The notes under the pieces: model-generated
Told to the model about the DNA's origin: nothing
The model's database searches: none
What the model saw: the letters and a program-made list of their open reading frames with translations, nothing else
Made by a program: the position numbers and the translations under genes
In this document: positions 7,266-37,429 of the stretch, one piece after another
Layout: the number at the start of each line of letters is the position of its first letter
Numbering within the stretch: the first letter of the stretch is position 1
Origin: Lachnospiraceae bacterium
GTDB lineage: Bacteria > Bacteroidota > Bacteroidia > Bacteroidales > UBA932
Length of the DNA stretch: 64,000 nucleotides
Direction: 5' to 3'
NCBI GenBank assembly: GCA_963654805.1
Contig: CAVKBL010000009.1
Span: forward strand, 868 to 64,867

Positions 7266-7300
7266 AAGAAGACGCCTCGTATCGGGGTGTCTTCTTTTTA
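7266..7300 (+). terminator. Intrinsic terminator after fba
   Basis: aagaagacgcc...ggtgtcttctt stem followed by a T run. Confidence 0.8.
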
Positions 7301-7367
7301 TTTCTTCCTGCCGGACATAAATCCGAACATTTTTCATAAATTCGCTAGGAAAAAATCAAACATAACC

Positions 7368-8456
7368 ATGTACACTAAAGACTACCTTAAGCAAATAGCT
7401 TCAGCTTTTGAAGTAGATTCCGATATCACGGACATATGCCCGCTTGGAGAAGGGCTTATCAATGACACATTTAAGGTCAGCACCGCGCACGGACATTACG
7501 CCCTGCAGCGCATCAACAACGCCATATTCCAGGACGTGGAACTGCTTCAGCACAATATAGAGGCCGTGACCGCTCACATACGTGAGAAACTCACCGCCCG
7601 TGGCGAGACGGACATAGACCGCAAAGTACTTACCTTCATTCGCTCTAAAGAAAGCAAAAAGACATATCACATAGACCAGGAGGGTAAATATTGGCGCATG
7701 TCAGCCTTTATAGAAGGCAGCCGTAACATAGATGAAGTAAATGAAGAATCGTCCCGTCTGGCCGGACAGGCCTTCGGACAGTTTGAGGCGGAGCTTTCGG
7801 ACCTTCACGAAGAAATAGGCGAAACCATACCGGACTTCCATAATATGCCGCTCCGTCTCCGGCAGCTCCGGCAGGCCGTAAAAGACAACCCCAAAGGACG
7901 GGTCTGGGAAGTAAGGGATCTTCTGGACATAATAGACAGGCACGCCGAGAAGATGTGCGCCGCCGAGACACTTCACGCCGAAGGCAAACTTCCCAAACGC
8001 ATCTGCCACTGCGACACGAAGGTCGGCAACGTCCTGTTCGACAAAGACGGCAAAGTACTGTGCGTCATAGACCTGGACACGGTGATGCCGTCATTCGTAT
8101 TCTCGGATTTCGGAGATTTCATGCGCACCGCAGCCAATCCTGTATCGGAAGACAGTCCTGAGTACGACAAGATAGAGTTTAAGATGGACATTTTCAAAGC
8201 GTTCACGAAAGGGTATCTTTCTACGGCCGGGGAGTTTCTCACTCCGCTTGAGATAGAAATGCTCCCCTACGCCGTGCAGTTGTTCGCCTTCATGCAGGCC
8301 GTTCGTTTCCTCACCGACTACATTAACGGAGACACCTATTATAAAATCAAATACCCCGAGCACAATCTCGTTCGCACACGCAACCAGATAACCCTCTTCC
8401 AAAGCGCTTTAAGCAAAGAAGATGAGATGCATCGATTCATAAAAACTCTTATTTGA
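7368..8456 (+). CDS. APH/choline-kinase-fold sugar kinase (N-acetylhexosamine 1-kinase / MdsC-like)
   Basis: GEGLINDT, LQRIN, HCDTKVGNVLF, IDLDT, DFGD, RFLTDYINGDTYYK; start at MYTKD. Confidence 0.8.
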   Translation: MYTKDYLKQIASAFEVDSDITDICPLGEGLINDTFKVSTAHGHYALQRINNAIFQDVELLQHNIEAVTAHIREKLTARGETDIDRKVLTFIRSKESKKTYHIDQEGKYWRMSAFIEGSRNIDEVNEESSRLAGQAFGQFEAELSDLHEEIGETIPDFHNMPLRLRQLRQAVKDNPKGRVWEVRDLLDIIDRHAEKMCAAETLHAEGKLPKRICHCDTKVGNVLFDKDGKVLCVIDLDTVMPSFVFSDFGDFMRTAANPVSEDSPEYDKIEFKMDIFKAFTKGYLSTAGEFLTPLEIEMLPYAVQLFAFMQAVRFLTDYINGDTYYKIKYPEHNLVRTRNQITLFQSALSKEDEMHRFIKTLI

Positions 8457-8523
8457 AGCGGGAATTGCCATAATTTCACAAGTTATCACTATTTTTGCAC
8501 CACTTACCGATAAAAATGCGTTT

Positions 8524-9288
8524 ATGAAAGTAATAAACGAAAGAAGACAGGACATTATCAATACTATACTTAATCAGGGAGTGGTGAAAGTCTCACTTCT
8601 GGCCGAAAAGTACAATGTCACTCAGACAACGATACGCAAAGACCTTAACTATCTGGAGAAAAAGGGACTGCTGCACCGCTCATACGGTAATGCAGTGGCT
8701 GCCTCGGCTCCGGTAAAGGATATCTCGCTCGGCAAGAAAAAGCTCATTAACTTCAATGCCAAATTCCGCATCGCAAAAGCCGCCGCCGAACTGATAGAAG
8801 AGAACGACTCCATATTCATAGCTTCCGGCTCCACCATAGCCATCTTTGCGGACAATCTCAAACCTAAAGGCCGTCTCAATGTAGTCACCATCTCCGTGAA
8901 CATCTCCACGATGCTCGGTGAGAACGACAGCATATCGGTAATGCAGGTGGGAGGGATGCTCTACAGCAATACCCTTTCCGTCTACGGAAGCGATGCCATT
9001 CAATCCGTCAAAAACGTATTCTGTTCGAAACTTTACTTCGGTATCGATGGTATGTCACTCGAACACGGCATCACCTGCGCCACCAGAGAAGAAGCTGAAC
9101 TAACCCAAGAGATGATGCGCTCCGCAGAGAAAAAGATAGTTCTGTGCGATTCGAGCAAACTCGGGAAAAGAGGGTTTGCCCGAATCTCAGACATCTCCGA
9201 CATAGACATACTTATCACTGACTCCTCCTTTCCGCGAGAAGCCAAAGAGCAGTTTGAAAATGCCGGAGTGCAGATAATTATGGTCTAG
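8524..9288 (+). CDS. DeoR/GlpR (AgaR-like) transcriptional regulator
   Basis: ERRQDI...VTQTTIRKDL HTH, SGST, CDSSK, LITD. Confidence 0.93.
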   Translation: MKVINERRQDIINTILNQGVVKVSLLAEKYNVTQTTIRKDLNYLEKKGLLHRSYGNAVAASAPVKDISLGKKKLINFNAKFRIAKAAAELIEENDSIFIASGSTIAIFADNLKPKGRLNVVTISVNISTMLGENDSISVMQVGGMLYSNTLSVYGSDAIQSVKNVFCSKLYFGIDGMSLEHGITCATREEAELTQEMMRSAEKKIVLCDSSKLGKRGFARISDISDIDILITDSSFPREAKEQFENAGVQIIMV

Positions 9289-10129
9289 GCGAGTGATATT
9301 TCACAAGTCCTTCGATAGGAGACTTGATGATATTACCCAAACTCATACCGAACTCTGAAGCTACCTCGGCGAGAATGTCCCTATGACAATAGCCTACGGA
9401 GCCTACGCAATTGAGGCTATACTTTCTGTAATCAGGATAAAGAGTTACGATATTCCGGAAAAAATCCCTGAAAGCGCCTACCATCAGATCGTGGCAATAA
9501 GGGATAGTATGTCTATTTTGTCCCACCCATGTGCAGAACTGCGCGCAGTAGCGGTTAGCCTTAGGTTTACGATACACCTGCTCAATTATCTCTTCAGCGT
9601 TCTTGCCGACAAGAGCCTTGACCTTTTCATAAACATCCGAAGGCATGTTTTTTCTCGCATAATCACGCAGCAAAGTTTTTCCTATATATCCTCCACTGCC
9701 CTCGTCTCCCAAGATGAAACCCAGAGAATCGATATTGAGCGTCACCTGAGCTCCATCATAAAGGCAGCTGTTGGTACCCGTTCCAAGAATAGCTGCAAAA
9801 CCGGCGCTGTCACCAAGCAAGGCGCGTGCCGCTGCCAGTAAATCCATAGCTACAAACACCGTATCCGCATTAGGGAATACACCCAGGAGCGTCTCGCGCA
9901 TAAAATCATAGTCGAGTTCACTTACTCCGGCTCCATAAAAATACACTTCCTTTACTTCCCCCGGATTGAAACCGGCAGGAAGATTGGCACGGATGTCGCT
10001 TTGAATGTCAGGACCTGAAATAAAATTAGGATTATAGCCGAGGCTGTTGAAATATGCCGGAACGCCTCCTTCTTTCGGAATATAGGCCCAGTCTGTCTTG
10101 GTGGACCCGGAATCTGCAATCAGTATCAT
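9278..10129 (-). CDS. BadF/BcrAD-family N-acetylhexosamine kinase (MurK-like)
   Basis: MILIADSGSTKTDW, FYGAG, ILGTGTNS, LGFILGDEGSG. Confidence 0.85.
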   Translation of the reverse strand: MILIADSGSTKTDWAYIPKEGGVPAYFNSLGYNPNFISGPDIQSDIRANLPAGFNPGEVKEVYFYGAGVSELDYDFMRETLLGVFPNADTVFVAMDLLAAARALLGDSAGFAAILGTGTNSCLYDGAQVTLNIDSLGFILGDEGSGGYIGKTLLRDYARKNMPSDVYEKVKALVGKNAEEIIEQVYRKPKANRYCAQFCTWVGQNRHTIPYCHDLMVGAFRDFFRNIVTLYPDYRKYSLNCVGSVGYCHRDILAEVASEFGMSLGNIIKSPIEGLVKYHSPRP

Positions 10130-10185
10130 TTTGAAATTATTTTTAATTATTCTTGTCCGTAGCACAATAAAGGTGCCTGCAAAAC

Positions 10186-11388
10186 TTATTTTCTTATTCT
10201 ATAGCCGATGTAGGCGTAATAGAAAATAAAAAGATAGCACGGCAAGCATATCCAGTAGGCAGCCTGATTGCCTATCCCGTCCTTAAGAAACCCGAAAACG
10301 AGCGGAATCAGCGCACCTCCACCGAATGATGCTACCACCAGCGAAGATCCCACCTTTGTAAAACGTCCGAGATCCGTAATGGCCAACGGCCAGATGGCAG
10401 GATTCATCAGTGAACACGCCAGTGCGATGAAAGCCACGCACCAGATGGACACCCGGGCCGGAGTCAGGACAATGAGCAGCGTACCTGTCACCGCAAGCCA
10501 GCAGCATATACGCAGAGCCTTCACCTGTGACATAAAGCGTGGAATGAGAATAATTCCGAGCACATAACCTACCGCCATGCCTATACTTGGCCACAATGCA
10601 TATATCTGAGGATTAGGAAGATGCAGACAAGCGGCATAATCCACGACAGAAGACAGCGCAAGGGTCTCGACTCCGGTATAGAAGAACATGGCCAATGCCC
10701 CCAGAATAAGATGCGGGAACTGCCAGATGCTCGTCTTGCCGGCGGCGTAAGGACAATCCTCTGTCTCGCTTTCATCTTCACCGGCCGCCTTCACCTCCTG
10801 GAGAGGCGCGAAAAGAGTAAGAATGCCCAGAACCACGAAAATTCCGATTATTATTATGAAAGGCGTGGTGATATCGACAAGCTCCGCTTCATCTATGCTC
10901 TTGCCTATGACAGCCGCCAGAAAGACAGGTGCCGCAGCCCAAGCCATGGAATTGCAGATTCCCATCAGACTCATCCTCCTGGCGCCGCTCTCCATAGGTC
11001 CAAGTATGGTAACATATGGATTGATGGCCGTCTGCAGGACAGTATTGGCCACTCCGCTAAGAAACGAAGCGAAGATGAAAAGAGGAAGACTTTCCCCTTT
11101 GGCCGAAGGTATGAACAGGCAGAAAGCGATGGCGAAAAGGGCGAACGAGAGCGACATGGTCCGGCGGTATCCTATCCTGCCTATAATCTTGGCCGCAGGA
11201 TAACTGAACAGCAGAAAGGCGCAGAAAGTGGAGGCTATCAGAAGATACGACATCCCCGAAGACACTTCGAGAGTAGATTGGAGAAGCGGAATAAGATAAC
11301 TGTTGATGCCAAGGGCAAACCCCACGATAAAGAACATCGAACCTATTATCGCGAGAGGAAGGGCATAATTATGGGGTTTATTCATCAT
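10186..11388 (-). CDS. MFS sugar transporter (FucP/GluP/NagP family)
   Basis: About 12 hydrophobic segments; LQTAINPYVTILGP, YTGVE, PAIWPLAITDLG. Confidence 0.88.
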   Translation of the reverse strand: MMNKPHNYALPLAIIGSMFFIVGFALGINSYLIPLLQSTLEVSSGMSYLLIASTFCAFLLFSYPAAKIIGRIGYRRTMSLSFALFAIAFCLFIPSAKGESLPLFIFASFLSGVANTVLQTAINPYVTILGPMESGARRMSLMGICNSMAWAAAPVFLAAVIGKSIDEAELVDITTPFIIIIGIFVVLGILTLFAPLQEVKAAGEDESETEDCPYAAGKTSIWQFPHLILGALAMFFYTGVETLALSSVVDYAACLHLPNPQIYALWPSIGMAVGYVLGIILIPRFMSQVKALRICCWLAVTGTLLIVLTPARVSIWCVAFIALACSLMNPAIWPLAITDLGRFTKVGSSLVVASFGGGALIPLVFGFLKDGIGNQAAYWICLPCYLFIFYYAYIGYRIRK

Positions 11389-11407
11389 TCAAATACATTA
11401 AGCCATG

Positions 11408-12502
11408 TCAGAACGGAAGTTCGGCATAGAGGCCGTTAAAAGTCTGCATCCCTTTCCATACAGGAGTGCCGAAAAGAGCGTTATCGTTGGTCGGGTCACA
11501 TATATACCACTGCCCATCCACATAAATGTGCGGAATGACATGCCCTATTACTGATGAAGAGAAATAGCACTGACCGTGAACATAACGGGCAGGTATACCG
11601 GCAGCGCGGCACATGGCCACCACGGCATGGGCCATATCACAACAGTTTCCCGCCTTGTCCTTTATCGTACCCACGGCGCCCTTCCTGGTATTATAATAGT
11701 TCTCCCACTCCCATTTGTCTCGGGCATATTCGAATATGGCTTCAGCCTTCTCTCTGTCGGCAGTCTTTCCGGAAATGGCCTCCTGCATGGCAGAAACTAC
11801 CGTCCCGTCATCAATCGGGCAATTTTTGGCGCTTCGAAGATAATCTGAACACCACACGCTCACGCTTTCAGGAAGAGCGCTATAATGACGATAATGATCC
11901 ATCACTCTTGCCACACAGACGAGTGCCTGAGCAAAAAGAAGATTTCCCACATACTGCTCACCTTCAGAAGTGTAATTGTACTCTACTGAAGAATCTCCGC
12001 TACGATCATCTTTCCACGTTCGCGTGCCGAAACAGCAATAATTAGGATACGCTCCTACCTTTGCGGCATAGGCATTCATCTTTTCAATGGCCCATTTCAG
12101 AGCCGGAAGAGAGATTTCGTCCTGTTCGAAAGTATTCCACGCCATGGACGAGGCGGAAGAATATTTCGGAATCTCCACATCACTGCATTCCTGCCAGCTG
12201 TCGGGATACTGCTCTATCAGCGAGATTATGGAACAGGCTGCTGAAAAATACTTGGCCTGACTATAATCTACGCCCTCCACATTGACGTAAAGGGGCATCT
12301 CATCCGTCTCGACAAAAGTCTCATAAGCCTGCGATACCGCCTGCAGGAACTCTCCATTCCATGAAGAAGGTGTAAATTCTTGGGGTGACGGTTCATTGCC
12401 TTTTCCGCTGTTTTTAGTGCATGCGCAACCGGCCAAGAGCAAAACGGCTGTCATAAGTATGGCATTGGCACAAAATACAGGATTAAAAAATCTATGATTC
12501 AT
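11408..12502 (-). CDS. Lipoprotein with three pseudomurein-binding-repeat-like units and a transglutaminase-like Cys peptidase domain (methanogen-type)
   Basis: Lipobox LAGC; repeats FVETDEMPLYVNVEG, MNAYAAKVGAYPNY, ARVMDHYRHYSALPESVSV; triad motifs GNCCD, GHV, DPT; AGIPARYVHG; C-terminus LYAELPF. Confidence 0.8.
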   Translation of the reverse strand: MNHRFFNPVFCANAILMTAVLLLAGCACTKNSGKGNEPSPQEFTPSSWNGEFLQAVSQAYETFVETDEMPLYVNVEGVDYSQAKYFSAACSIISLIEQYPDSWQECSDVEIPKYSSASSMAWNTFEQDEISLPALKWAIEKMNAYAAKVGAYPNYCCFGTRTWKDDRSGDSSVEYNYTSEGEQYVGNLLFAQALVCVARVMDHYRHYSALPESVSVWCSDYLRSAKNCPIDDGTVVSAMQEAISGKTADREKAEAIFEYARDKWEWENYYNTRKGAVGTIKDKAGNCCDMAHAVVAMCRAAGIPARYVHGQCYFSSSVIGHVIPHIYVDGQWYICDPTNDNALFGTPVWKGMQTFNGLYAELPF

Positions 12503-12534
12503 ACTGAAGGTTATTAGATGTTGGTTTTCTGGCA

Positions 12535-12562
12535 GACACGGGAGCGGTCAGGCTCCCGTGTC
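12535..12562. other. Intergenic perfect stem-loop without U-tract
   Basis: gacacgggagc-N6-gctcccgtgtc (11-bp stem). Confidence 0.75.
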
Positions 12563-12578
12563 CAATAGATTCTTACTA

Positions 12579-14939
12579 TCAGAAAGTCTCTCCCTGATGA
12601 TACATGTCGAAGTCGAACTGCTGATCCTTGAGCGCGGTGTAAACATTCTCGGTGATATCATTGTCGAGGATGTATTTGTAAGCTCTTGCAAGAATGTAAA
12701 GCTCACGTACCGGTGAGATGAGGCCCACATAACCGTCAAGAACTATGGTACTTCCCGTATCGGTACCGAACTGCTGGAAGTTGCCTATCTTTCCGAGAGG
12801 AGAAGAACACCAGCCATTCTTCACGAACGCACGTCCAAGATGTATGGAAGTAGCCTTCACGATGAACTTAAGACCTACTGTAGAGATAGCTTCTCCATTA
12901 TATGTAACCAGAGAATTGCCGCTGTTATCATATTCATACCACGGAGTGACACCCCAATCACATCCCTTCGTAGCTGAAGGGATCTTGTCGCTAAGCTTGC
13001 ATCCGTCACCGTAAGTAAATTCATCGTTACGTTTCTTCATGGTCTCGATGAAACCTTCACCTTCTTCCGTTACAAGATTAAGGAACGCGCGAACCGCTAT
13101 TTCCCACGCCTGTGCCGAGGTATATTCCGTATCGCCTACCTTGACTGACCATACGCCCCACTTAGGGTCATACTGGTTACCGTCATGACCATAAGGGTTC
13201 CCCGACGGCTCGCCGATAGGAATGAAATGAACATTCTCCCATGCGCTGTTGTTGTCAGTACAATGAACGCCTTCGGCATCCACTTTACCCATACATTCTT
13301 CCCAAAGAGGAAGACACTTTACGAATTCGATGGCGAAATCACGGATGGTAGCTTCGGAAGGCACAACATATTCTGCCTGTTTAACGACTATTTCAAGACC
13401 GTCCGTAACATTTCCGCCCTTGATGATCACCTTGCCTTCACGAGCTTCTCCTGTATTGGACTTCACGCTGACAGTGATTTTTGCAGGAGATGCAGCTTCG
13501 CCTGATACAGGAGAAACTGTAATCCAGTCTGCATTTGCTTCAGCTGTCCAAGCTTTCTTGGCGATAAATGATGCGTCCGTGCTCTTGGCGTCAGCCGAAA
13601 ATTCAAGAGTCTTGGTCTGAAGTTCTATATCCGGCATTTCAACACCATAGAGGTCATAGTCCAATTTAAGATTCTTGACTGCGTCATAGACATTTTCCGT
13701 GATATTGTTCTTGAGAAGATAATCATAGAAACGGCAGAGAACGAGGAACGCACGCATAGAACTGATATATCCGTGGTAAGGTTCCATAACGACAGAGCTG
13801 TCAGGATCTTTTTCAAAATTAAGGAAATTACCTATCTTGCCCAGTTCCGGAGCTCTCTTGAGGAACCAAGGAATAGCACGTACCATAAACGCGATATCGC
13901 ACGGATTTTCTTCAGAGAAATTCATAGGCCCGATTTCTCCGTCATTCGTGCTTTCATACCAAGGATACAATCCCCAGACAGCCCATTCTTCGGTAGCAGG
14001 AATCTTTTCATTAAGCGCCTTTCCGTTACCGAGGGAATGTACAGGAGTATTACGTTCCACTTGCTTGGTTACAGATCCTTCAGGTGTTACAAGATCAAGG
14101 AAGCCTTTGGCTGCCACCACGAAGCATTCTGCGGCAGTATATTCGGTACCTGCCACGGTAATGGTGTGATATGGCTGATATTTGGCGTCATACTGATCCT
14201 TGCCGTCAGCATAAGCTCCACCGCTGTGAGGAATAGGAATGAAATGGACATTCTCCCATACATCACCATTGTCAGTACAGTGGCTGGCGTCGGCGCTGAC
14301 ATTACCGACAGTCTTTTCCCAAATATCAAGATAAGACACCAGAGCCTCGGCGAAGCCCTTCAGCGTAGCTGCTGAGCCCAGATAATCGGTAGATACCGTC
14401 GCAGGAAGTTTGCCGTCTTTCTTATATAGAGCAAGAGTACGGGCAAGAGTAACGGTAGCACGGTTGGTAGAGAAAGCGATGGCGGAGCCGTCCTTATAGA
14501 ACACGGTCTGGTTAGGAATCTGTCCTTTCTCTTTAACGACTGCAAGAATATTGGCGGCTATAGCCTGCACACTCTCATCTCCGGTTACGGCGATGGTCTC
14601 AGCCTCATAACTGTCTCTGTCAGGATGTTCGGCAGCCTTGTAATTGAAAACTTCTACGTCGCCGGAAGTCGTTCCTGCGATAATATTGGATACTACCTTA
14701 CACAGAGCATACTGATACTGAGGCTGTGTAAGTGTCACATCCCCTACATTAAGAGAAGACGGGATGGCCGTAGTGGTCTCCCACTCAGAATACATAGTCG
14801 AAAAGGCTTCGACCAGAGTCTGCTGCGCGATGGTGGCAACAGGTTTAACATCAGATTCCGGTTTCTTTTCTTTATCGCAGGCTGCAAAAAGAGCAACTGC
14901 AGAAACCAGCACGATGAGATAATTCCAAATTTTTCTCAT
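12579..14939 (-). CDS. Surface lipoprotein: PMBR-like repeats plus two copies of an unknown ~250-aa domain separated by a BACON domain (putative surface glycan-binding protein)
   Basis: Lipobox FAAC; WETTTAIPSSLNVG, VKEKGQIPNQTVF, ARTLALYKKDGKLPATVS; duplicated HCTDN..WENVHFIPI; BACON WTAEANADWITVSPVSG...NTGEAREG. Confidence 0.72.
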   Translation of the reverse strand: MRKIWNYLIVLVSAVALFAACDKEKKPESDVKPVATIAQQTLVEAFSTMYSEWETTTAIPSSLNVGDVTLTQPQYQYALCKVVSNIIAGTTSGDVEVFNYKAAEHPDRDSYEAETIAVTGDESVQAIAANILAVVKEKGQIPNQTVFYKDGSAIAFSTNRATVTLARTLALYKKDGKLPATVSTDYLGSAATLKGFAEALVSYLDIWEKTVGNVSADASHCTDNGDVWENVHFIPIPHSGGAYADGKDQYDAKYQPYHTITVAGTEYTAAECFVVAAKGFLDLVTPEGSVTKQVERNTPVHSLGNGKALNEKIPATEEWAVWGLYPWYESTNDGEIGPMNFSEENPCDIAFMVRAIPWFLKRAPELGKIGNFLNFEKDPDSSVVMEPYHGYISSMRAFLVLCRFYDYLLKNNITENVYDAVKNLKLDYDLYGVEMPDIELQTKTLEFSADAKSTDASFIAKKAWTAEANADWITVSPVSGEAASPAKITVSVKSNTGEAREGKVIIKGGNVTDGLEIVVKQAEYVVPSEATIRDFAIEFVKCLPLWEECMGKVDAEGVHCTDNNSAWENVHFIPIGEPSGNPYGHDGNQYDPKWGVWSVKVGDTEYTSAQAWEIAVRAFLNLVTEEGEGFIETMKKRNDEFTYGDGCKLSDKIPSATKGCDWGVTPWYEYDNSGNSLVTYNGEAISTVGLKFIVKATSIHLGRAFVKNGWCSSPLGKIGNFQQFGTDTGSTIVLDGYVGLISPVRELYILARAYKYILDNDITENVYTALKDQQFDFDMYHQGETF

Positions 14940-14965
14940 AAATAAAACATTTTAGTGAATAGTGG

Positions 14966-16315: not shown

Positions 16316-16318
16316 AAC

Positions 16319-17149: not shown

Positions 17150-17161
17150 AAATATCTAATT

Positions 17162-21900: not shown

Positions 21901-22128
21901 GCACACCTTCTGACCTTCGGCGTCCCTTATTACAAGACAGTGAGAGCGCAGATTCTGATGCAGTCCGTCAGAAAGGCCCTGTCTTGCCGCAAATCCAGCC
22001 AGCACGACGTGCTCATCCAGTGTCGTGGAGATGTCACACGACCGGTAGTTCATCTCCAGGCGGGAGGATTGGCATCCCACCGCCAGGAAAAGTACAGCTA
22101 CATATTTTATATTTTTCAAAAAATTCAT
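18994..22128 (-). CDS. Neutral/alkaline-ceramidase-like amidohydrolase fused to GH20 hexosaminidase
   Basis: N-terminal LAGF..R, HNIHTHSAP, NLACHP, VSSDYPG, TGAAGNMDP, GEPF, YLPS; C-terminal FHWHLTEDQGWR and YHIGGDE. Confidence 0.85.
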   Translation of the reverse strand: MNFLKNIKYVAVLFLAVGCQSSRLEMNYRSCDISTTLDEHVVLAGFAARQGLSDGLHQNLRSHCLVIRDAEGQKVCIISNDLMEISPSISDTIRTMIAERSGLDLGRILMHNIHTHSAPRSGGASVTAGGTNLAWKLRMMETLVDNAVKTIVSDAEFKPFTLQTGKGRTFINANRCEKGGPVDHDVYVARFIRKGAPTVSIVNLACHPVCMGPRSKAVSSDYPGVCSGILSEKWGGEVFFLTGAAGNMDPARGPQDAAYAETCGRELADDLSGVQFTAVKSRGLLRLINEKVDLPYQKDEITAADVRHHADSLARCSSAVSSTFGDDVRRWEGEILERFKAGPVPSKLRYSLHVVDLDGVLFFFSDGEPFCEYQSEAREAFPQKTIFFAGYTNGQNSYLPSERAYKVRKGYEYETEQMHIYIKAPYPISPAAPAVYAEGVKKILSDAIRSENAEPQKDWRCYGIIPEPASLEPLPGEFTLKSGSHLSVESVEPTFAQASVVFMEKVQASTGIDLSKGRGSDILLRQVEGLGEEEYRMEVSPKRVKIEASTSAGAFYGLQSLLQLLPAQIYSPDRVHGVKWSAPCCRISDRPALPYRSMMLDCGRYFYSKDFVKEFIDYMSIRKLNKFHWHLTEDQGWRIEIKKYPLLTEIGSKRPFTSDYNGKNPDGKPHGGFYTQDDVREVVEYARLRQIEVVPEIEIPGHSTAALAAYPRFSCDTTRTYSVSTDWGVKKDVYCPSEATLTFLEDVFAELLPLFPSKYYHIGGDECPQDAWRNSPYCRKIMRQLGLKSYDEVQSYFVNRISEYLRAHGKQVIGWDEILDGKGVNGQMIAQSYRGHGPAAKGIRSGHRVILSPDRWCYFNYYQEGPLREPANQPRFLPLKKIANYYPAVDSLPELSKKYIIGVEGCLWGEYAPESGKVEYNAFPRTSALAESGWTLRSNKDWWSFRCRMEKEMQRIEAERVGYSKAYWNVIFDYDSVNLTRPEDADMMLDYPEAAIHYTVDGSIPELSSPIFTRPFVPEKGTVVKAQGIKYNGEKVGELVEIPF

Positions 22129-22149
22129 ATTCTACGAGTAAAAACAGGT

Positions 22150-24147
22150 CTAGTATCCGGGATTCTGAACCAGAGTACCGTTGGATTTGGTCATCTCATT
22201 GGCAGGGATTGGCATAAGATAATTAGGCCATTCTCCATTTTTCTTGTAAAAATGCTTCTGGGTAGGAGGGATGTTCAGGCAGCAGTCGCCGTAATCCACC
22301 CAATAGTCTTTCCCGAGCCAACTGTATTTGATGCAGGAGCCCTGTATCTGAACAGCACCTTCGGAGTCTATCTGCGCCTGCTCGAACATGTCCCTGCCGT
22401 TGGCAGTTATGTAATCCGTCCTTTCCTTGGAATTGAGCCAATAGTAGCAGGTATTGTTCAGGCTCTCGTCATAGGTGCGCGCCACACGGTAGATGGTCTC
22501 CGTAGATGAACCGTTCTGCAGTATCATGGTCCTCATACCTATGATAGGGATATTCTCATAGAATGGAGCCGTCTTCCACCGGCGGACATCGAAGTAGCGG
22601 AAGGTCTCGAATGCAAGTTCCACCCTGCGTTCATTGACAAGCCTGTCCCAAAGAGACTCGCCGCTTTCAGTTACTTCCGGCATACCGGCACGTGCGCGTA
22701 TCTTGTTGATATACTGGCGGCACAAAGCCTCGTCACCTGTCATATACGCACACTCAGCATAATTGAGATACATCTCGGCCAATCTGAACCAAGGATAAAG
22801 AAGCGAACCCGTCTCCGATTCGGTTATAGGAGAAGTAGGGATATACCACTTCATCATCTCAAGCCCGGTGGCGCCGGTGGCCGCCCAAAGATGCTTGGCC
22901 TTGGATGTATAGGTAGGCTCCGTATTGCCTTTTGCAAAATCACTTTTCTGTTTGCCTTCGTAGTAGAGCGCCAGATCAAGCGTATTCACATGATAACCCG
23001 AGCCGTCGGTGTTAGGATATTCGCCTCCGTGATAAGCGATGCTCTGATAAAAACGCGGGTCGCGTCCGTCAAAAGGCTTCTGCGGATCATATCCTGAACC
23101 ATCCTCGAAGATTTTTTTGCCGTTGGCCATCTCGTAATCTATGAACATAGCCTGCGTAGGCTCGAAAGCAGTCCATCCGTTGAAATACACTATGGAATAA
23201 AGAAGCTGGGCTTTCTTCATCGAGTTGTCATTGGCATCGGAATTTGAAATGAAATACTTGGCCCAGATAAGTTCCGGAGAATCGGTGTTTTTCCACATCC
23301 CGTCATAAGTCTTGTCCAGACTGTATGCAGCATCCACGTCGGCCCTGTCGATGATGAGTTTGGTAGCGTCAAGAGCACGTTTCCATTTGTCTGCGCTATA
23401 TGTCCCGCGAAAGATTCCGCCTTCCGGACGGTCAGGATCGTTGAAAAGAGGCGACGCGGCCACGAGAGTAAGACGGCTGCGCAGCGCGAGAACCACATCC
23501 TTGTTGATTCTACCCTTGAGTGCGTTCTCTTTAGAAGGAAGAAGCTGATAAGCCTTGTCCAAGTCTTCAAGAATGAAATCCACACAGTCATCGAAATTCG
23601 CCCTTTGCGCGTCATAGACATCCGTCAGATTATATGCCTTGGTGACGATAGGCACACCGGCATAACGCTCTATGAGATTGAAATATGTCCAGGCACGAAG
23701 AAAATACACCTCACCCTTAAGTCTGGTCAGATCATCCTGAGAGATCTTGGTGCCCTTTTCGTCCACATATGCCAGAAAATAATTTATCCTGTATATGCGC
23801 TCGTAAGCTCGGTTCCAGATGTTCAGTATGGTAGTTCTGGTACTATGTGCCGGACCGCCTTCGCTCATATACATGATATTGTCCGGAGTCATGGTGCCTG
23901 AAGCTATGTATCTGGTGGAAGTGCCGCCGTAGCGGAAATATCCCTCGTCCGTAATGCACCCTATGTTTCCCTCCTGGAAAGGATCGGGAAGTACGGTGTA
24001 TATGGCGTTGATATAATTTTCTGCCAATGCGGCGCTGTTGAAGACAGCATCTTCCGAAAGTTTGTCCAGAGGAGTCTTGTCCAGAAAACCGTCGTTACAC
24101 GAAAGTGCGAGCGAAGCAGTGGCAATTATTGCAAATATCTTTTTCAT
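22150..24147 (-). CDS. susD: SusD/RagB family lipoprotein
   Basis: LSCNDGFLDKTP, GEVYFLRAW.YF, RDPRF, FRLAEMYLNYAE, NERRVELAFE, QNPGY. Confidence 0.93.
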   Translation of the reverse strand: MKKIFAIIATASLALSCNDGFLDKTPLDKLSEDAVFNSAALAENYINAIYTVLPDPFQEGNIGCITDEGYFRYGGTSTRYIASGTMTPDNIMYMSEGGPAHSTRTTILNIWNRAYERIYRINYFLAYVDEKGTKISQDDLTRLKGEVYFLRAWTYFNLIERYAGVPIVTKAYNLTDVYDAQRANFDDCVDFILEDLDKAYQLLPSKENALKGRINKDVVLALRSRLTLVAASPLFNDPDRPEGGIFRGTYSADKWKRALDATKLIIDRADVDAAYSLDKTYDGMWKNTDSPELIWAKYFISNSDANDNSMKKAQLLYSIVYFNGWTAFEPTQAMFIDYEMANGKKIFEDGSGYDPQKPFDGRDPRFYQSIAYHGGEYPNTDGSGYHVNTLDLALYYEGKQKSDFAKGNTEPTYTSKAKHLWAATGATGLEMMKWYIPTSPITESETGSLLYPWFRLAEMYLNYAECAYMTGDEALCRQYINKIRARAGMPEVTESGESLWDRLVNERRVELAFETFRYFDVRRWKTAPFYENIPIIGMRTMILQNGSSTETIYRVARTYDESLNNTCYYWLNSKERTDYITANGRDMFEQAQIDSEGAVQIQGSCIKYSWLGKDYWVDYGDCCLNIPPTQKHFYKKNGEWPNYLMPIPANEMTKSNGTLVQNPGY

Positions 24148-24159
24148 ACTCGTTTATTC

Positions 24160-27100
24160 TTAGAAAGTCAGTTTAACACCGGTATTGAAAATTCTCATCT
24201 GCGGATAAGTCTGATATGACTCGTCACTTGTCTCCGGATCGACGTTCTTCAGAGGAGAGAATGTAAGAAGGTTATAACCTGCTATATAGAAGCGGAGATT
24301 CTTGATGTTCAGCTTCTGTGTAAGGAAACTGTTGGTAAGGTTGTATCCTATCTCCACGTTCTTGAGTCGGAGGAAAGATGCGTCACGATAATAGAATGAT
24401 GAACTGTTCACTCCGCCGTTGCTGACATTGGACCCAAGCCTAGGATAGTTGGAGTCCGTATTCGTAAGTGTCCAAGCCTTCTCGGCGGCTTCCTTCTCCA
24501 CGTTTCCTGAAAGAGGATCCATCAGAGGAGCATAGTAGAAGCGTGCCCTGGCCTGTCCCTGGAAAAGCACTGAGAAATCCAGATTCTTCCAATGTCCGTC
24601 GAAAGTGAGGCCATAGACTATCTCAGGAACGGCCGTAAGATCGCACCTCTTTCTGTCGTAAGAAGTTATCTTTCCGTCGCCGTCAAGATCCGCGAATATG
24701 AAATCTCCCAGGGTGGCACCCGACATCTGAGGATATTTCTCAAGGTCTTCCTGAGTCTTGTTTATGCCAATTACCTGATAATAAAGCTGAGAGCCCATAG
24801 GATGACCGGTAAGGTTCATATATTCGTGACCTTCGCCCCAAGGGGTCTCGTCCATATATTTGATACGGTTACGGGCGAACATGAAGTTCCCGCTGAGATG
24901 ATAGGCGAAATCGCTGCCGTGAACTTTGTTCTCATGATGAAGCTGGAGTTCGAAACCCTTGTTGGTCACGATGCCTATGTTTTCGTCCGGAAGGCTGTTG
25001 GTAAGTCCCGTATAATATGGAATGGAAGCATTTCTGGTACAGAGAATATTGGAACGTTCGGTGCTGAAATATTCAACTTCCCAGCCGAAAAGACCATTGT
25101 TCACGCTTCCGTCCAATCCAAGATTCCAAGTCTCGGCCACTTCCCAGGTAATGTTCTGGTTAGGCACTTTGCCTGGAATGATGAAACTTACGTCCTTGTC
25201 GTCGAGACGGAGCTTATATGAAGAACCTGAGGTATATTCATAGGTGGTCATATACTGGAAAGCGTCCACCTGATCGTTACCCTGCTGCCCGTAAGAGCCG
25301 CGGAGCTTGAGGTTGGTAAGCCAAGGAACGTTCTCTTTCACGAACGATTCCTCTGAAAGTCTCCATCCTAAAGACACGCCCGGGAAGAAACCCCAGCGCT
25401 TGTCTGAAGGGAAATTCTCCGATCCGTCAAAACGTCCTATGAACTGGAACATATAGCGGCTTTTCCAGTCATAGCCTATACGGGTGAAATAGCTTCGGCG
25501 TGCAGTCTCGGTAGCGTAACCTCCTATGCTGTACCAGCTCTTGTCGGCAGAACCGGCGAAGAATTCGTCGAGTATGTCGGAATCGTATTTGTTGATGCCG
25601 GCACGGAAATAGTCAAGCCTGTAGGAAGCCTGTTCGAAACCGAGAAGACCAGTGAAGTGATGTCCGTCGAAATCACGGTCATAGTTAAGGTTTACGTTGA
25701 CGGTCGTCTTGCCGCTGTTACGCTGATATTCGTGAAGTACAGGGGTGCTCCAGTAAGATGCGGTCTTCTCCTCGAACGTCTCGGTTACCTCGTCGTAAGA
25801 CCAGTACTGCCAGTTCTTCTGCCAGTTCTTCTGGAAATTACCTATGACATCGTATGCCAGGGTTCCGTTGACGGACAGACCCTTGGTAAGAGCGCCGAGA
25901 TCCCAGTTCAGGGTGAAGGTGGAGTTGATGGTGTTGATGGTGGTCCTGTCATATCCGGTGAGGTCCTGCACTAGAACTGCAGGATTGGACCCTCCGCGAA
26001 GATATCCGTTAGGATAATATGCGGCTCCCGTAGGTTTCAGGCGGGTGGCTATGTAGAAAATACCGTAGCTGTCAGAAGGGAAAGCCGAGTAGTTCTTATG
26101 CTGCTGACGGGCATTCAGGTTGACACCGAGTTTAAGGGCGTCTGTGACCTTGATGTCGATGTTGGTACGGATGTTATACTGGTCGTAATTGGTGGCGGAC
26201 TTCTTATATATACCGTCCTGATACTGTCCGTTAAGCTCGACAAAGTATGCTACATTCTTCCCCCCCCCACTGAAATTCACGCCGTATTTGTGCTGCAGTG
26301 AGACAGGCTTGATAATCTCGTCGAACCAGTTCGTGTTAGGATAATTTATGAGATCATCCCCGTCACGGTAGTGCGCAAGCTGTGTCTCATTATATACAGG
26401 AGCGGCACCGGTAATAGCGAGCTCGGCGTTATATGCGTTAGTGTAAAGAACGGCATCCGCCATCTCCACCAGTCGAGTAGGCTGCTGAAGACCGAGATCG
26501 TAATTGAAAGTGACAGTCGTGCCTTCACCGAACTGTCCGCGCTTGGTGGTGACAAGTATGACTCCGTTAGCGGAGCGTGCACCATAGATGGCACCTGACG
26601 CATCCTTAAGGACATTGACGCTCTCGATCTCATCTCCGGACAGACGGCTGAACTCCTCGTTGCTTCTCGGCACACCGTCTATTACTATAAGAGGGCTGTT
26701 GTCTCCCAAAGTGCTGCGACCACGGATGAACATGGTAGCATCATCCTTTCCAGGTTCACCTGTACGATTACTGATAATGACACCCGACAGACGTCCTGCA
26801 AGACCCTGCGAGATGTTCACTCCGGAATTCTTCGTAAGTTCACGCCCGGAAGTCTGGGTAACGGAACCGGTAAGAGTGAGCTTGCTCTGCGTACCGTAAC
26901 CGACTACCACGGCATCACTCAAGAAAGTGGATTCAGTAACAAGGACAAAGTTCACGGTCTGCCTCCCCTCTACGGCCTGCTCCTGATCCTCAAAACCGAG
27001 AAGGCTGGCTACAAGCACGGCTCCTTCCGGCACTGTAAGGGTATAACGGCCGTCTATATCTGTCATAGCACTGGACATGTTCGTGGCGGCCTGCCCTTTT

Positions 27101-27276
27101 ACATAGACTATGACTCCAGTCAGAGCTTCGTTTTCCGTATCTGTTACGATTCCGGAAACGGTAACAGTTTTGCGATTCTGCGGATATTCACCAGCTCGAG
27201 CCGAAGGAATACCGGATGCGAAGGTCACCGCACAAAGCAAGGCCATCGCAATAAGATGCTTGGTAACAATTCCCAT
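24160..27276 (-). CDS. susC: SusC/RagA TonB-dependent transporter
   Basis: VVVGYGTQ, PLIVIDGV, VLKDASGAIYGARSANGVILVTTKRG, terminal Phe. Confidence 0.95.
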   Translation of the reverse strand: MGIVTKHLIAMALLCAVTFASGIPSARAGEYPQNRKTVTVSGIVTDTENEALTGVIVYVKGQAATNMSSAMTDIDGRYTLTVPEGAVLVASLLGFEDQEQAVEGRQTVNFVLVTESTFLSDAVVVGYGTQSKLTLTGSVTQTSGRELTKNSGVNISQGLAGRLSGVIISNRTGEPGKDDATMFIRGRSTLGDNSPLIVIDGVPRSNEEFSRLSGDEIESVNVLKDASGAIYGARSANGVILVTTKRGQFGEGTTVTFNYDLGLQQPTRLVEMADAVLYTNAYNAELAITGAAPVYNETQLAHYRDGDDLINYPNTNWFDEIIKPVSLQHKYGVNFSGGGKNVAYFVELNGQYQDGIYKKSATNYDQYNIRTNIDIKVTDALKLGVNLNARQQHKNYSAFPSDSYGIFYIATRLKPTGAAYYPNGYLRGGSNPAVLVQDLTGYDRTTINTINSTFTLNWDLGALTKGLSVNGTLAYDVIGNFQKNWQKNWQYWSYDEVTETFEEKTASYWSTPVLHEYQRNSGKTTVNVNLNYDRDFDGHHFTGLLGFEQASYRLDYFRAGINKYDSDILDEFFAGSADKSWYSIGGYATETARRSYFTRIGYDWKSRYMFQFIGRFDGSENFPSDKRWGFFPGVSLGWRLSEESFVKENVPWLTNLKLRGSYGQQGNDQVDAFQYMTTYEYTSGSSYKLRLDDKDVSFIIPGKVPNQNITWEVAETWNLGLDGSVNNGLFGWEVEYFSTERSNILCTRNASIPYYTGLTNSLPDENIGIVTNKGFELQLHHENKVHGSDFAYHLSGNFMFARNRIKYMDETPWGEGHEYMNLTGHPMGSQLYYQVIGINKTQEDLEKYPQMSGATLGDFIFADLDGDGKITSYDRKRCDLTAVPEIVYGLTFDGHWKNLDFSVLFQGQARARFYYAPLMDPLSGNVEKEAAEKAWTLTNTDSNYPRLGSNVSNGGVNSSSFYYRDASFLRLKNVEIGYNLTNSFLTQKLNIKNLRFYIAGYNLLTFSPLKNVDPETSDESYQTYPQMRIFNTGVKLTF

Positions 27277-27325
27277 ATTGTTAATTTTAGTGTTCTTGTA
27301 ATCTGGTTAGCGAATTTCAATAGGA

Positions 27326-27446
27326 CAAATGTATAAATTAATTTCGTTTAATGAAAACTTTTTACAAAAAATTATTGCGATTTTATTTACAAAATGTTTC
27401 GTTCGTACATCAAACAAAACATTTTAATGGCAAATCGTTCGTTCTA
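27326..27446. promoter_or_regulatory. Divergent susC/GH109 control region: -7 element and TTCGTT-type repeats
   Basis: TACATTTG on the minus strand at 27326-27333; tttcgttt near 27342, aaatgtttcgttcgt near 27392, aaatcgttcgttct near 27432. Confidence 0.5.
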
Positions 27447-27562
27447 AGCAAACACCCTTATGACGTCACAGGGGAAAAATTCATATCTCACCCGAAAGTT
27501 TGCTGACAAATCGAAATCCGAATTTTTTTCATAAATTTACGGGCATTTTAACTACATCCACC

Positions 27563-28930
27563 ATGAGAACAATAACCAAACTCCTCTTAGGACTCTCCCT
27601 TTTTCTTACATTCGCTCCGTCGTGCAGAAAAACGGACGAGTACGCCTATTATAAAAAAGACGGCAAGATCATCTACCCTACTCCGCAGCGGCCGAAAGAT
27701 CAGCAATCGATGCTCGGATATGCAGCAGATCCGATAGAAACCATACGCGTGGGATTCATAGGTCTGGGGATGAGAGGACCTGGCGCGGTGGAGCGGTTTA
27801 CCTACCTGGAGCACACACGTATCGTGGCACTCTGCGATCTTCTGGAAGACAGAGCCACAAAGCAGCAAGCCTTTCTTAAAACCAAGGGAATAAATGACGT
27901 GGACACTTACTGGGGAGAAGACGCATGGAAAGAAGTCTGCGAAAGGGACGATATAGACCTTATCTATCTGGCCGTTCCTTGGCAATACCACACCTCTATG
28001 GCGGTCTATGCCATGGAGCACGGCAAACACGTGGCCGTGGAAGTTCCGGCGGCCACCAGCATAAAAGAGTGCTGGGACCTGGTCAACACATCCGAGCGCA
28101 CCCGGAAGCACTGCATTATGCTCGAGAACTGCATCTATGACGACTTCGAGCTTACCACGCTAAATATGGCGCAGCACGGCCTGTTTGGAGAAGTATATCA
28201 CGTGGAAGGCGCTTACATCCACAATCTCGATCCATATTGGGAGCTATACCAGGGAGACTGGCGGATGATATACAACCGCGAGCATCACGGAGACGTCTAC
28301 CCTACACACGGGATAGGACCCGTAGCCATGGTGCTTGGCATACATCGCGGTGACAGGATGACCACCCTCGTATCTATGGACACAGACTCTTTCCACGGAA
28401 AAGCTCTCGCACAAGCGAAATACAAAGACGACACCTATGCCAATGGCGACCACACCTCCACACTTATCCGCACCCGGAAAGGTCGTACGCTCGAAATTCA
28501 GCATAACACATATGCCGTGCGACCTTACAGCCGTATGTTCCAAGTTACAGGAACTGAAGGATTCGCGAATAAATATCCTTCAGAGGGCTTTTCAATAGAA
28601 AGCATCAACGGAGAAGAATTTGTGTCTTCCCAGGAAAAAGACGCTCTTATGAAAGAGTACCAGCATCCAATCACGAAAGAGATACTTGCCCTGGCAAAGA
28701 AAGTCGGAGGGCACGGCGGCATGGATTTCATCATGGACTACCGCCTGGTATACTGCCTGCATAACGGACTTCCTATGGATATGGACGTATATGATGCTGC
28801 GGAATGGAGCAGTCTGGTCGAACTCACCGAAGTATCCATTCTCAACGGAAGCGCACCGGTTCAGATGCCAGATTTCACCCGTGGCGAATGGAACAAACTG
28901 CAAAAGGTAGAATTCCACCTTTGCAATTAA
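27563..28930 (+). CDS. GH109 / Gfo-Idh-MocA NAD-dependent N-acetylhexosaminidase (lipoprotein signal)
   Basis: GFIGLGMRG, GKHVAVEVPAA, MLENCIY, YPTHGIGP, GGHGGMDF; start at MRTITK. Confidence 0.9.
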   Translation: MRTITKLLLGLSLFLTFAPSCRKTDEYAYYKKDGKIIYPTPQRPKDQQSMLGYAADPIETIRVGFIGLGMRGPGAVERFTYLEHTRIVALCDLLEDRATKQQAFLKTKGINDVDTYWGEDAWKEVCERDDIDLIYLAVPWQYHTSMAVYAMEHGKHVAVEVPAATSIKECWDLVNTSERTRKHCIMLENCIYDDFELTTLNMAQHGLFGEVYHVEGAYIHNLDPYWELYQGDWRMIYNREHHGDVYPTHGIGPVAMVLGIHRGDRMTTLVSMDTDSFHGKALAQAKYKDDTYANGDHTSTLIRTRKGRTLEIQHNTYAVRPYSRMFQVTGTEGFANKYPSEGFSIESINGEEFVSSQEKDALMKEYQHPITKEILALAKKVGGHGGMDFIMDYRLVYCLHNGLPMDMDVYDAAEWSSLVELTEVSILNGSAPVQMPDFTRGEWNKLQKVEFHLCN

Positions 28931-32929: not shown

Positions 32930-32959
32930 ATTATGTTTTTCTTTTTTATTATCAATTAA

Positions 32960-34447: not shown

Positions 34448-34615
34448 ATAACTATTTTTTGATTTTTCAACGTACGGCCCTTCACTATCCAAATACTTTA
34501 CCAAAAGAGGCGAAAGTTGCATAACAAAAAGGGTAATTTATATTACATTTAGGATAAAAAAGCGACATTTTAATATTTTATGCGTAAATTTGAACAATTT
34601 TAAAAACCGTTTGAG

Positions 34616-37418: not shown

Positions 37419-37429
37419 ATGTTTTTCTT

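Follow-up and report, generated by a model that had tools for sequence, protein, structure and literature searches.

A Sus-like locus of scattered gut and rumen Bacteroidales with a three-gene cassette related to methanogen wall proteins, and its possible role in pseudomurein foraging

The locus described here lies in a 64,000-nt stretch of contig CAVKBL010000009.1 (assembly GCA_963654805.1, positions 868–64,867), referred to below as the window, from which all coordinates are counted unless stated. Ten genes on the minus strand, at 9278–27276, most likely make up a polysaccharide utilization locus (PUL) that is common to scattered Bacteroidales of gut, rumen and digester, and that has captured a three-gene cassette derived from Methanobacteria. 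The cassette is very likely of archaeal origin. Whether the locus serves to forage on pseudomurein, the wall polymer of the Methanobacteriales, is about an even call, and its substrate, like all of the binding and catalytic activities discussed below, we infer. The locus may represent the first bacterial system feeding on methanogen cell walls.

The listing of open reading frames (ORFs), combined with Pfam and NCBIfam scans of the window proteins, bore out the single ten-gene run on the minus strand that a preliminary description had drawn from the sequence alone. Distances from one gene to the next range from -1 to 76 bp, with 12 bp between SusC and SusD and 3 bp between the MurQ gene and the LTD/barrel gene. 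The genes, from the SusC end, are as follows:

24160–27276, minus: SusC-type TonB-dependent outer-membrane importer (TIGR04056 at 874.4 bits, cut-off 368; TIGR04057 signature; Plug and CarboxypepD_reg domains)
22150–24147, minus: SusD-type lipoprotein lid (PF07980, E 7e-51; PF14322, E 2e-26)
18994–22128, minus: 1044-aa lipoprotein with a neutral-ceramidase-like (amidase-type) N-terminus (PF04734) and a GH20 domain (PF00728)
17162–18994, minus: GH20 beta-N-acetylhexosaminidase lipoprotein (PF00728, E 2e-119, and domain 2, PF02838)
16319–17149, minus: MurQ-family sugar-phosphate etherase, a locus-specific paralogue (NF003915 at 291.6 bits, cut-off 168)
14966–16315, minus: 449-aa surface lipoprotein with an LTD domain (aa 30–129; PF00932, 36.7 bits) and a (beta/alpha)8 glycanase-like domain (aa ~175–449)
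12579–14939, minus: 786-aa surface lipoprotein with a unit of two motifs resembling the pseudomurein-binding repeat (PMBR; by hhalign), a module of about 240 aa present twice, and BACON (PF13004, 48.8 bits)
11408–12502, minus: 364-aa surface lipoprotein with a two-PMBR-like unit (aa ~53–217) and a transglutaminase-fold domain (aa ~218–364; PF01841, 80.6 bits)
10186–11388, minus: MFS sugar:cation symporter of the GluP/NagP type (TIGR01272 at 211.8 bits, cut-off 202.55)
9278–10165, minus: MurK-family (BadF-type ASKHA) sugar kinase, a locus-specific paralogue (PDB MurK 8oqw and K1058 8oqk)

The scans agreed with the labels first given to the ceramidase-like/GH20 protein, the LTD and glycoside hydrolase protein, the BadF kinase and the MFS carrier, the barrel being a weak match to PF13200. 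In the 1044-aa protein, PF04734 scored 39.3 bits (cut-off 32.1) at aa 40–227, and PF00728 matched aa 594–935 with an E-value of 5e-111; the GH20 structure 6q63 aligned (E 2e-116) to aa 461–1016 only. The 786-aa protein is ordered as a PMBR-like unit (aa 28–188), a first module (aa ~190–432), BACON (aa 434–527) and a second module (aa ~530–786). The MFS carrier scored 260.8 bits with the NagP_SO3503 model, under its cut-off of 625. Lipoprotein signals of the Bacteroidetes type, also part of the preliminary description, were confirmed on the three middle proteins as the lipoboxes L-A-G-C, F-A-A-C and L-A-A-C; both GH20 proteins carry one too (A-V-G-C in the 1044-aa protein and V-L-G-C in the other). 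As in Sus-like PULs, an adjacent SusC/SusD pair is accompanied by co-directional, conserved enzymes, here the two GH20 proteins and the three lipoproteins.

The resemblance of the three middle lipoproteins to methanogen wall proteins, proposed in the preliminary description, is borne out by genome counts. The archaeal sample consisted of 121 genomes of the class holding the one archaeal locus, with a second draw of 151 genomes that largely repeats the class sample and serves as a second positive count only; these genomes are called Methanobacteria on the basis of the seed locus (L077) and of the PMBR found in the matches. The barrel domain (aa 190–449) matched 109 of the 121 genomes, with E-values down to 1.8e-50 and 30–37% identity over about 245 aa, and 136 of the 151 genomes of the second draw. 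It matched none of 250 genomes sampled across the bacterial order and none of 300 other Bacteroidota sampled across the phylum. The transglutaminase protein was found in 121/121 Methanobacteria, at 1–16 copies per genome, with a best E-value per genome of 3e-27 to 4e-42 and 40–55% identity over aa ~185/218–364, several alignments extending from aa 40–60 to the end. In the 300 other Bacteroidota, 131 genomes gave a match to this protein, the best with an E-value of 3.7e-11 (43 bits, about 100 aa). The 786-aa protein matched 45 of the 121 genomes, with E-values of 1e-3 to 6e-8 and only through aa ~11–219. Best hits to widespread bacterial proteins without affinity to Methanobacteriales were therefore not what the searches returned. 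In a phage collection, the transglutaminase protein best matched ORF35 of Methanobacterium virus Drs3, with 37% identity across 189 aa (E 4e-35); this ORF is annotated as a pseudomurein-binding repeat protein and combines PMBR with a transglutaminase domain. The MurQ of the locus was run as a negative control against 61 Methanobacteria genomes and gave only three marginal matches of 18–20 bits, so that the archaeal affinity belongs to the cassette and not to the locus as a whole.

Two Methanobacteria genomes (G031 and G036) contain the same modules in one polypeptide. These ORFs, of 1312 aa (L095:1267–5205) and 1339 aa (L096:1312–5331), run from Big_1/Big_3_5 immunoglobulin-like (Ig) domains through DUF4015 (39.1 and 32.3 bits) and 4–5 PMBR repeats (107.5 and 121.1 bits) to Transglut_core, which is the gene order of the window. 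The barrel of the window aligned to the fused archaeal barrel with 34% identity over 250 aa (E 9e-48), and at least six further Methanobacteria genomes had matches to the barrel, the PMBR unit and the transglutaminase domain within the same ORF. The fused Methanobacteria proteins are candidates for pseudomurein autolysins or cross-linking enzymes.

Among 1.84 billion cluster representatives, the barrel family comprised 385 clusters at E ≤ 1e-3, 295 at ≤ 1e-10 and 90 at ≤ 1e-30. When the best 150 of these clusters were sorted by their accessory domains, 80 carried archaeal PMBR, Ig or transglutaminase parts, 28 carried Bacteroidales parts (LTD, the module of the 786-aa protein, or BACON), 8 had a bacterial lipobox only and 34 had nothing else. 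The named members of the family came from Bacteroidales metagenome-assembled genomes (MAGs) and from Methanosphaera stadtmanae. One metagenomic protein of 1537 aa (P0361) was seen to contain three barrel domains.

Quick maximum-likelihood trees were built with support from the SH-aLRT test (Shimodaira–Hasegawa-like approximate likelihood ratio), with neither bootstraps nor an outgroup. The barrel tree held 144 domains, classed by accessory domains, of which 42 of the 150 proteins had none. All 29 rows of Bacteroidales type fell in one group of 41 rows (SH-aLRT 93) placed among archaeal rows; one archaeal row lay inside the group at a position that the tree leaves open, and a midpoint root had archaeal rows on either side. 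The transglutaminase tree used every third listed homologue together with archaeal rows, after rows with fewer than 110 aligned positions, including vir080 and PeiP, had been dropped. Here, a single branch (SH-aLRT 99.9) separated 40 Bacteroidales rows from 28 archaeal rows and Drs3.

Taken with the fused form and the cluster survey, both trees make the inter-domain transfer suggested in the preliminary description well supported. Its direction was most likely from archaea to bacteria, because the family occurs universally and in several copies in Methanobacteria but is patchy in Bacteroidales, because the rows of Bacteroidales sit within archaeal ones, and because the modules are tied to PMBR. 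The GC content of the cassette (0.47–0.49) is the same as in the rest of the window, which indicates that the transfer was not recent.

The distribution of the locus was followed with a scan of species-representative genomes using an alignment of the 364-aa family, which gave 66 bacterial loci and the one Methanobacteriota locus. Genes were counted by tblastn of the window proteins on the 66 loci, within the flank fetched, and the counts per gene are lower bounds because many loci end at contig ends. All seven core genes were present in 39 of the 66 loci, so the arrangement is not due to chance, and synteny across gut and rumen Bacteroidales MAGs, for which the preliminary description had suggested a search, was found. 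Counted singly, the kinase was present in 60 loci, the LTD-barrel protein in 59, the MFS carrier in 58, the 786-aa protein in 53, the GH20 protein of the 17162–18994 type in 48 and MurQ in 47; where a locus spanned the position of MurQ and held both of its neighbours, the gene was there in 44/48 cases. The ceramidase-like part of the 1044-aa protein was found in only 16/66. Metagenomes from gut, rumen and digesters contain hundreds of relatives of the three lipoproteins, and the source names, where given, are all Bacteroidales. Within the genus the locus is patchy, the barrel domain occurring in 3 of 36 other species (43–71% identity).

Most of the 66 loci are from Bacteroidales MAGs, and a few carry Firmicutes names. 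The closest relatives of the locus (72–90% identity; L011, L012, L013, L016, L019 and L057) are labelled Coprococcus, Bulleidia, Faecalibacillus and Anaerovoracaceae. These bins are probably mislabelled, as their genes are typical of Bacteroidota (SusC/D, lipoboxes). A gene call of 736 aa (P0341) joins the SIS domains of MurQ with LTD and DUF4015; a cytoplasmic etherase joined to a lipoprotein is implausible, and the call probably reflects the loss of a stop codon, or an error of gene calling, where the two adjacent genes meet.

Rumen-type loci (L025–L076, e.g., L033:14023–20600) continue past the MFS gene with genes that are absent from the window. These encode an AAT-like Ntn hydrolase (36/66), a GltS glutamate symporter (30/66), a fusion of M20 with a Peptidase_C1_2 aminopeptidase (28/66) and a GHL10 protein (14/66), often together with a second barrel gene. 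Some of them also have a serpin gene (L027) or a fusion of PIG-L deacetylase with NagB (L074). The additional peptide genes indicate a glutamate-containing glycopeptide as substrate, which fits both wall polymers. Aminopeptidases of the C and M20 types usually act on peptides of L-amino acids, and the rumen-type peptidases would be better matched to the all-L peptide of pseudomurein than to that of murein.

For the PMBR units, hhalign comparisons were made with an alignment of 12 archaeal regions of four PMBR, taking each half in turn. The 786-aa protein (aa 28–188) matched the two halves with probabilities of 98.1 and 97.5, and the 364-aa protein (aa 53–217) with 95.5 and 95.4; the N-termini of the two proteins also match each other (E 1e-8). 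Of the 120 homologues listed for the 364-aa protein, 27 had a precomputed PF09373 hit, and of seven flagged homologues that were rescanned, having been picked because they were flagged, six reached the cut-off, at 25.2–29.1 bits. Each of the two proteins is thus predicted to carry one two-motif PMBR unit. The PMBR claim of the preliminary description holds as homology through profile–profile comparison and relatives, and fails as a direct Pfam match of the window proteins; a complete lack of PMBR similarity by profile or structure was not observed.

The transglutaminase domain of the 364-aa protein is well above the PF01841 cut-off of 23 bits. Residues C287/C288, H321 and D336, which we take from the fold to be a Cys-His-Asp triad, are invariant across 34 family members and are common to ORF35 of Drs3. 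Membership of peptidase family C71 (PeiW/PeiP) was ruled out by the PF12386 and BLASTP nulls given below, and the protein belongs instead to a generic Transglut_core branch. Drs3 and the archaeal relatives reach only 20–22 bits with PF12386 (cut-off 22).

The AlphaFold2 model of the 449-aa protein (pLDDT 92.3, pTM 0.88) combines an LTD of beta-sandwich fold with a (beta/alpha)8 barrel, and precomputed PF13200 (DUF4015) hits are found on many Bacteroidales homologues of the barrel. An all-against-representatives structure comparison, with which Foldseek was consistent, placed the following folds nearest to the barrel:

PgaB GH153 domain, 6au1_B: Z 21.9, root-mean-square deviation (rmsd) 3.1 Å, 260 aa
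Cwp19 functional region, 5oq2_A: Z 21.8, rmsd 3.9 Å, 265 aa
GH18 chitinases and the cortex-lytic SleL: Z 19–20

These closest solved folds all act on N-acetylhexosamine (HexNAc) polymers. The match at rank 50 still had a Z of 17.3, so that the fold backs the cutting of a glycan strand only and fixes neither family nor substrate. Sequence searches of the PDB gave no useful match to either the 449-aa or the 786-aa protein. With the AlphaFold2 model of the whole 786-aa protein (pLDDT 86.7), Foldseek and VIA-align matched only BACON (aa 434–527), and aa 190–432 had no usable match in the ESM Atlas. The module of about 240 aa is joined to the barrel in other Bacteroidales proteins (e.g., P0384, P0426 and P0430), which ties it functionally to the barrel enzyme.

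In the pathway proposed for pseudomurein, the modules of the cassette (a DUF4015-type glycanase, two-motif PMBR units and a transglutaminase-fold peptidase) would have been refitted with lipoprotein signals and with LTD or BACON domains. The PMBR units would keep wall fragments on the cell surface, where the transglutaminase-fold enzyme would open the peptide cross-links and the barrel enzyme would cleave the glycan. Fragments would then be imported via SusC/D, and terminal beta-linked N-acetylglucosamine (GlcNAc) or N-acetylgalactosamine (beta-GalNAc) would be trimmed by the two GH20 lipoproteins. Finally, the MFS carrier, the MurK-family kinase and the MurQ-family etherase would bring a 3-O-substituted amino sugar into GlcNAc-6-phosphate metabolism.

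Several results weigh against pseudomurein as the substrate. PF09373 did not match the window proteins even at an E-value of 10, and its best score across the genome was 12.7 bits, under the gathering score of 24.9. The transglutaminase protein had no match to PF12386 (peptidase C71), and BLASTP against PeiP of psiM2 gave nothing significant (best E 0.44). The score of the 449-aa protein with PF13200, 21.9 bits, is under the cut-off of 27. Cwp19, which is one of the two nearest solved barrels and reportedly a lytic transglycosylase of murein (PMC6016235), acts on bacterial murein. No gene recognisable as serving the catabolism of N-acetyltalosaminuronic acid was found, and the literature searched contained no description of the function of the archaeal homologues. 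The trees are without an outgroup, and the direction of transfer rests on distribution and not on a root. In one study, constructs with two pseudomurein-binding (PMB) motifs bound lysozyme-treated fragments of bacterial walls and not pseudomurein, for which three motifs were required (PMC3124540); a 2011 review records that PMB motifs were known at the time from two phages and from four genera of methanogens and five of proteobacteria (PMC3210951).

The strongest argument for murein is the conservation of MurQ (44/48) and of the kinase (60/66), both genes of families for N-acetylmuramic acid (MurNAc). MurQ belongs to the MurNAc-6-phosphate etherases and MurK to the MurNAc kinases, and pseudomurein contains no MurNAc. 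Murein foraging, with modules of archaeal origin that were re-tuned or were never specific, is accordingly the most serious competitor, although we consider it doubtful. The peptidase would cut stem peptides in the manner of NlpC/P60, the barrel would cut between GlcNAc and MurNAc in the manner of Cwp19, and GH20 would remove GlcNAc; the MFS carrier, the kinase and the etherase would afterwards take MurNAc along the known route to MurNAc-6-phosphate and on to GlcNAc-6-phosphate and D-lactate. The MurQ subfamily score (291.6 bits), the match of the kinase to MurK and the Z of 21.8 between the barrel and Cwp19 are consistent with such a route, and gut and rumen contain far more murein than pseudomurein. 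The behaviour of the two-motif PMB constructs, which held bacterial wall fragments and not pseudomurein (PMC3124540), points the same way, and Tannerella forsythia is described as able to use intact peptidoglycan (PMC7670621).

Against murein foraging stands the presence of a canonical murT-K-Q operon elsewhere in the genome, on contig C6, where it adjoins uvrA and encodes a transporter of the SSS type, a kinase and a MurQ scoring above the equivalog cut-offs. In L099 (contig C6, 8000–27000) its genes are:

10350–11846, minus: SSS symporter
9521–10420, minus: kinase
8689–9576, minus: MurQ

The C6 MurQ scored 303.5 bits with TIGR00274 and 320.5 bits with NF009222, whereas the MurQ of the locus stays under both cut-offs (240.7 against 302, and 248.5 against 255). 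The two MurQ proteins are 46% identical and the two kinases 35%, and the carriers are of different classes (MFS at the locus, SSS in the C6 operon). MurQ of the locus type is 68–97% identical among cassette-bearing loci. Within 40 genomes of the same genus it occurred in two cassette bearers only (91% and 68% identity), the rest being at 41–48%, and the best MurQ identity in 250 genomes of the same order without the cassette was 52%.

The kinase gave a similar picture. It matched MurK of T. forsythia over its full length (8oqw, E 4.7e-56) and the paralogue K1058 (8oqk, E 9e-52), and in the pocket it has D-S-L where MurK has S133-P134-L135. All 59 of 59 orthologues from the locus carry D-S-[C/L] (D-S-C in 45 and D-S-L in 14). 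S-P-L is found in MurK (8oqw), in the BT structure 1zxo and in PG1100, R-A-G in K1058 (8oqk) and K-A-G in the C6 kinase, for which K1058 is a closer match than MurK (174 against 166 bits). The structural study ascribes the MurNAc specificity of T. forsythia MurK to S133-P134-L135, which leave room for the lactyl ether, and gives R-A at these positions in K1058, whose natural substrate is stated there not to be known (Stasiak et al., PMC10465942). Another source applies two labels to the T. forsythia transporter MurT, sodium symporter and MFS protein (PMC5790795).

Judged by its sequences, the MurK/MurQ pair of the locus is a third, dedicated subtype, found only with the cassette. Since both proteins are divergent and locus-specific, MurQ points to murein less strongly than it seems to, and the murein alternative is weakened but not removed. 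That alternative had been raised in the preliminary description from MurQ and the MurK-like kinase; the two genes are a conserved part of the locus and are not the housekeeping MurNAc genes of the genome. Murein foraging also has to do without an Amidase_2 or Amidase_3 MurNAc-L-Ala amidase and without an L,D-carboxypeptidase, none of which was found by the Pfam scan of the locus in the window, and it leaves unexplained the use of modules otherwise confined to archaea bearing pseudomurein.

A MurNAc auxotrophy like that of T. forsythia was considered and rejected, as murA and murB are present over their cut-offs. No glmS (TIGR01135) was found in the genome, which is 97.75% complete; the best scores, 24 and 21 bits, come from SIS domains, one in each MurQ paralogue (contig C9, 17354–17650, and contig C6, 16760–17122). 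The organism may need to import amino sugars or to run NagB in reverse.

A stronger form of the pseudomurein reading, which we regard as unlikely, would make the bearer a complete degrader. The DUF4015-type barrel, which Methanobacteria have universally and in several copies, would be the long-sought hydrolase of the pseudomurein glycan, and MurK/MurQ would open the talosaminuronic acid-(1->3)-GlcNAc bond without a glycosidase, so that living methanogens could be attacked. The locus kinase would phosphorylate C6 of a 3-O-substituted GlcNAc and the MurQ-type enzyme would beta-eliminate the 3-O substituent, in the way that MurQ acts on the lactyl ether of MurNAc-6-phosphate. MurQ eliminates a 3-O substituent from GlcNAc-6-phosphate, and the GlcNAc of pseudomurein is 3-O-linked to talosaminuronic acid; it would therefore be chemically reasonable for the pair to open this linkage.

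Less probable again is a general scavenger of wall debris that would take both murein and pseudomurein through their shared beta-GlcNAc and peptide features, the cassette having been added to an older locus for muropeptide salvage. The cassette does form one block between the MFS and kinase genes and MurQ, two variants of the locus (L044 and L070) keep the cassette and SusC/D without MurQ and the kinase, and peptide-handling genes occur in the rumen-type loci (36, 30 and 28 of 66). PMB domains are reported to bind both wall materials (PMC3124540). Such a history is at odds with the absence of a cassette-free MurQ of the locus type, the identities being ≤52% in the 250 genomes of the same order and the bearers within the genus being cassette bearers only. 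We also know of no precedent for dual specificity of such enzymes for murein and pseudomurein.

The last alternative draws in part on the genes on either side of the locus, which are as follows:

7287–8456, plus: NahK-like N-acetylhexosamine 1-kinase (PDB 4ocu, E 4e-62)
8524–9288, plus: DeoR/AgaR-like regulator (AgaR model NF040755 at 217 bits, under its cut-off of 260)
27277–27499, no strand: divergent intergenic stretch between SusC and GH109, the likely site of the locus promoter (from ORF coordinates only)
27500–28930, plus: GH109-like NAD-dependent glycosidase (PF21252, 115 bits)

The three flanking genes are present as first described. They were found in 9 (NahK), 4 (DeoR) and 0 (GH109) of the 66 loci within the flank fetched, so they are local neighbours and should not be counted as parts of the pathway. 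It is very improbable that the locus acts on some other HexNAc-rich glycan (mucin, glycosphingolipid glycans, chitin or poly-N-acetylglucosamine) and that its likeness to methanogens is historical only: the two GH20 proteins, the ceramidase-like domain, the GH109, NahK-like and AgaR-like flanks and the PgaB GH153 domain as best structural match of the barrel (Z 21.9) would fit such a substrate, but the flanks and the ceramidase-like part (16/66) are not conserved, and the peptidase, the PMBR units and the MurQ-family etherase would have no role there. No hybrid two-component, SusR or ECF/anti-sigma regulator was found within the gene run.

Other parts of the window were noted in passing. A second SusC/SusD locus lies on the minus strand at 36042–53958 (SusC at 44980–48186, SusD at 43309–44967), with an S8 subtilase (38982–40988), a BACON protein (52504–53958) and seven ORFs of 145–775 aa that had no Pfam match at E 1e-5; an AraC regulator is found at 34616–35527. 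Its substrate is possibly a glycoprotein. Upstream are two AAA_14/DUF4143 ATPase genes (1393–2739, minus; 3071–4213, plus), and beyond GH109, at 29671–34522 on the minus strand, is an efflux set of two ABC-2 permeases, an HlyD-type adaptor and an outer-membrane factor. Both sets are ordinary and unrelated to the locus.

To our knowledge, no bacterial pathway for pseudomurein has been described, and the only lytic enzymes described for it are phage endoisopeptidases. In line with the statement of the preliminary description that no PUL with this substrate was known, no bacterial locus of this kind was found in the literature searched, most subscription journals being outside the search. According to the 2011 review, no enzyme cutting the pseudomurein glycan was known at that time (PMC3210951), and no later report of one was found in the literature searched. 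If pseudomurein is the substrate, the locus provides candidates for enzymes acting on each of the two bonds of the methanogen wall, which bears on the mitigation of ruminant methane. If the complete-degrader reading were true, the bearers would attack living methanogens as well as debris, and so alter methane output in rumen and gut. Whatever the substrate, a coherent three-module cassette of wall proteins has passed between domains of life and now works as part of a rewired import system of Sus-like type, and a dedicated pair of MurK/MurQ paralogues travels with it. The comparison also gives candidate functions, as autolysin or cross-linking enzyme, to a protein family that is universal and multi-copy in Methanobacteria.

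Among known systems, Sus-like PULs share with the locus the SusC/SusD pair, surface lipoprotein enzymes, BACON-bearing binding proteins and exo-glycosidases, all in a single co-directional run with genes for an inner-membrane carrier and a kinase. The locus differs from them in its surface peptidase, in enzymes from another domain of life and in a presumed substrate cross-linked by peptides. The murT-murK-murQ operon for MurNAc salvage and the peptidoglycan-scavenging cluster of T. forsythia likewise place a MurK-family kinase and a MurQ-family etherase beside a sugar transporter; compared with this operon type, the locus has an MFS carrier, the D-S-[C/L] pocket, a MurQ below equivalog level, and a SusC/D setting with surface enzymes. 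For the barrel, Cwp19 of Clostridioides difficile and the GH153 domain of PgaB, a hydrolase of poly-N-acetylglucosamine (PNAG), are alike in fold, yet their identity is only 11–14%.

PeiW and PeiP (family C71), from the Methanothermobacter phages psiM100 and psiM2, have the same arrangement as the 364-aa protein, with N-terminal PMBR followed by a C-terminal cysteine peptidase of transglutaminase-like fold. PeiP has four PMBR repeats (133.9 bits) and PF12386, whereas the window protein has one two-motif unit and PF01841; the phage enzymes sit in a lysis module and the window protein is a lipoprotein within a SusC/D locus. The closest counterparts are the wall proteins of Methanobacteria and ORF35 of Drs3, which provide direct homologues of all three modules of the cassette in the same order, and even the C-terminal motif is common to them (...YSELGF against ...YAELPF). 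The Methanobacteria forms are single polypeptides of about 1000–1500 aa, held on the cell's own wall via 4–5 PMBR repeats. In the window, by comparison, three separate genes encode the modules; the Ig domains have dropped out, LTD, BACON and the module of about 240 aa have been added, and the proteins are lipoproteins.

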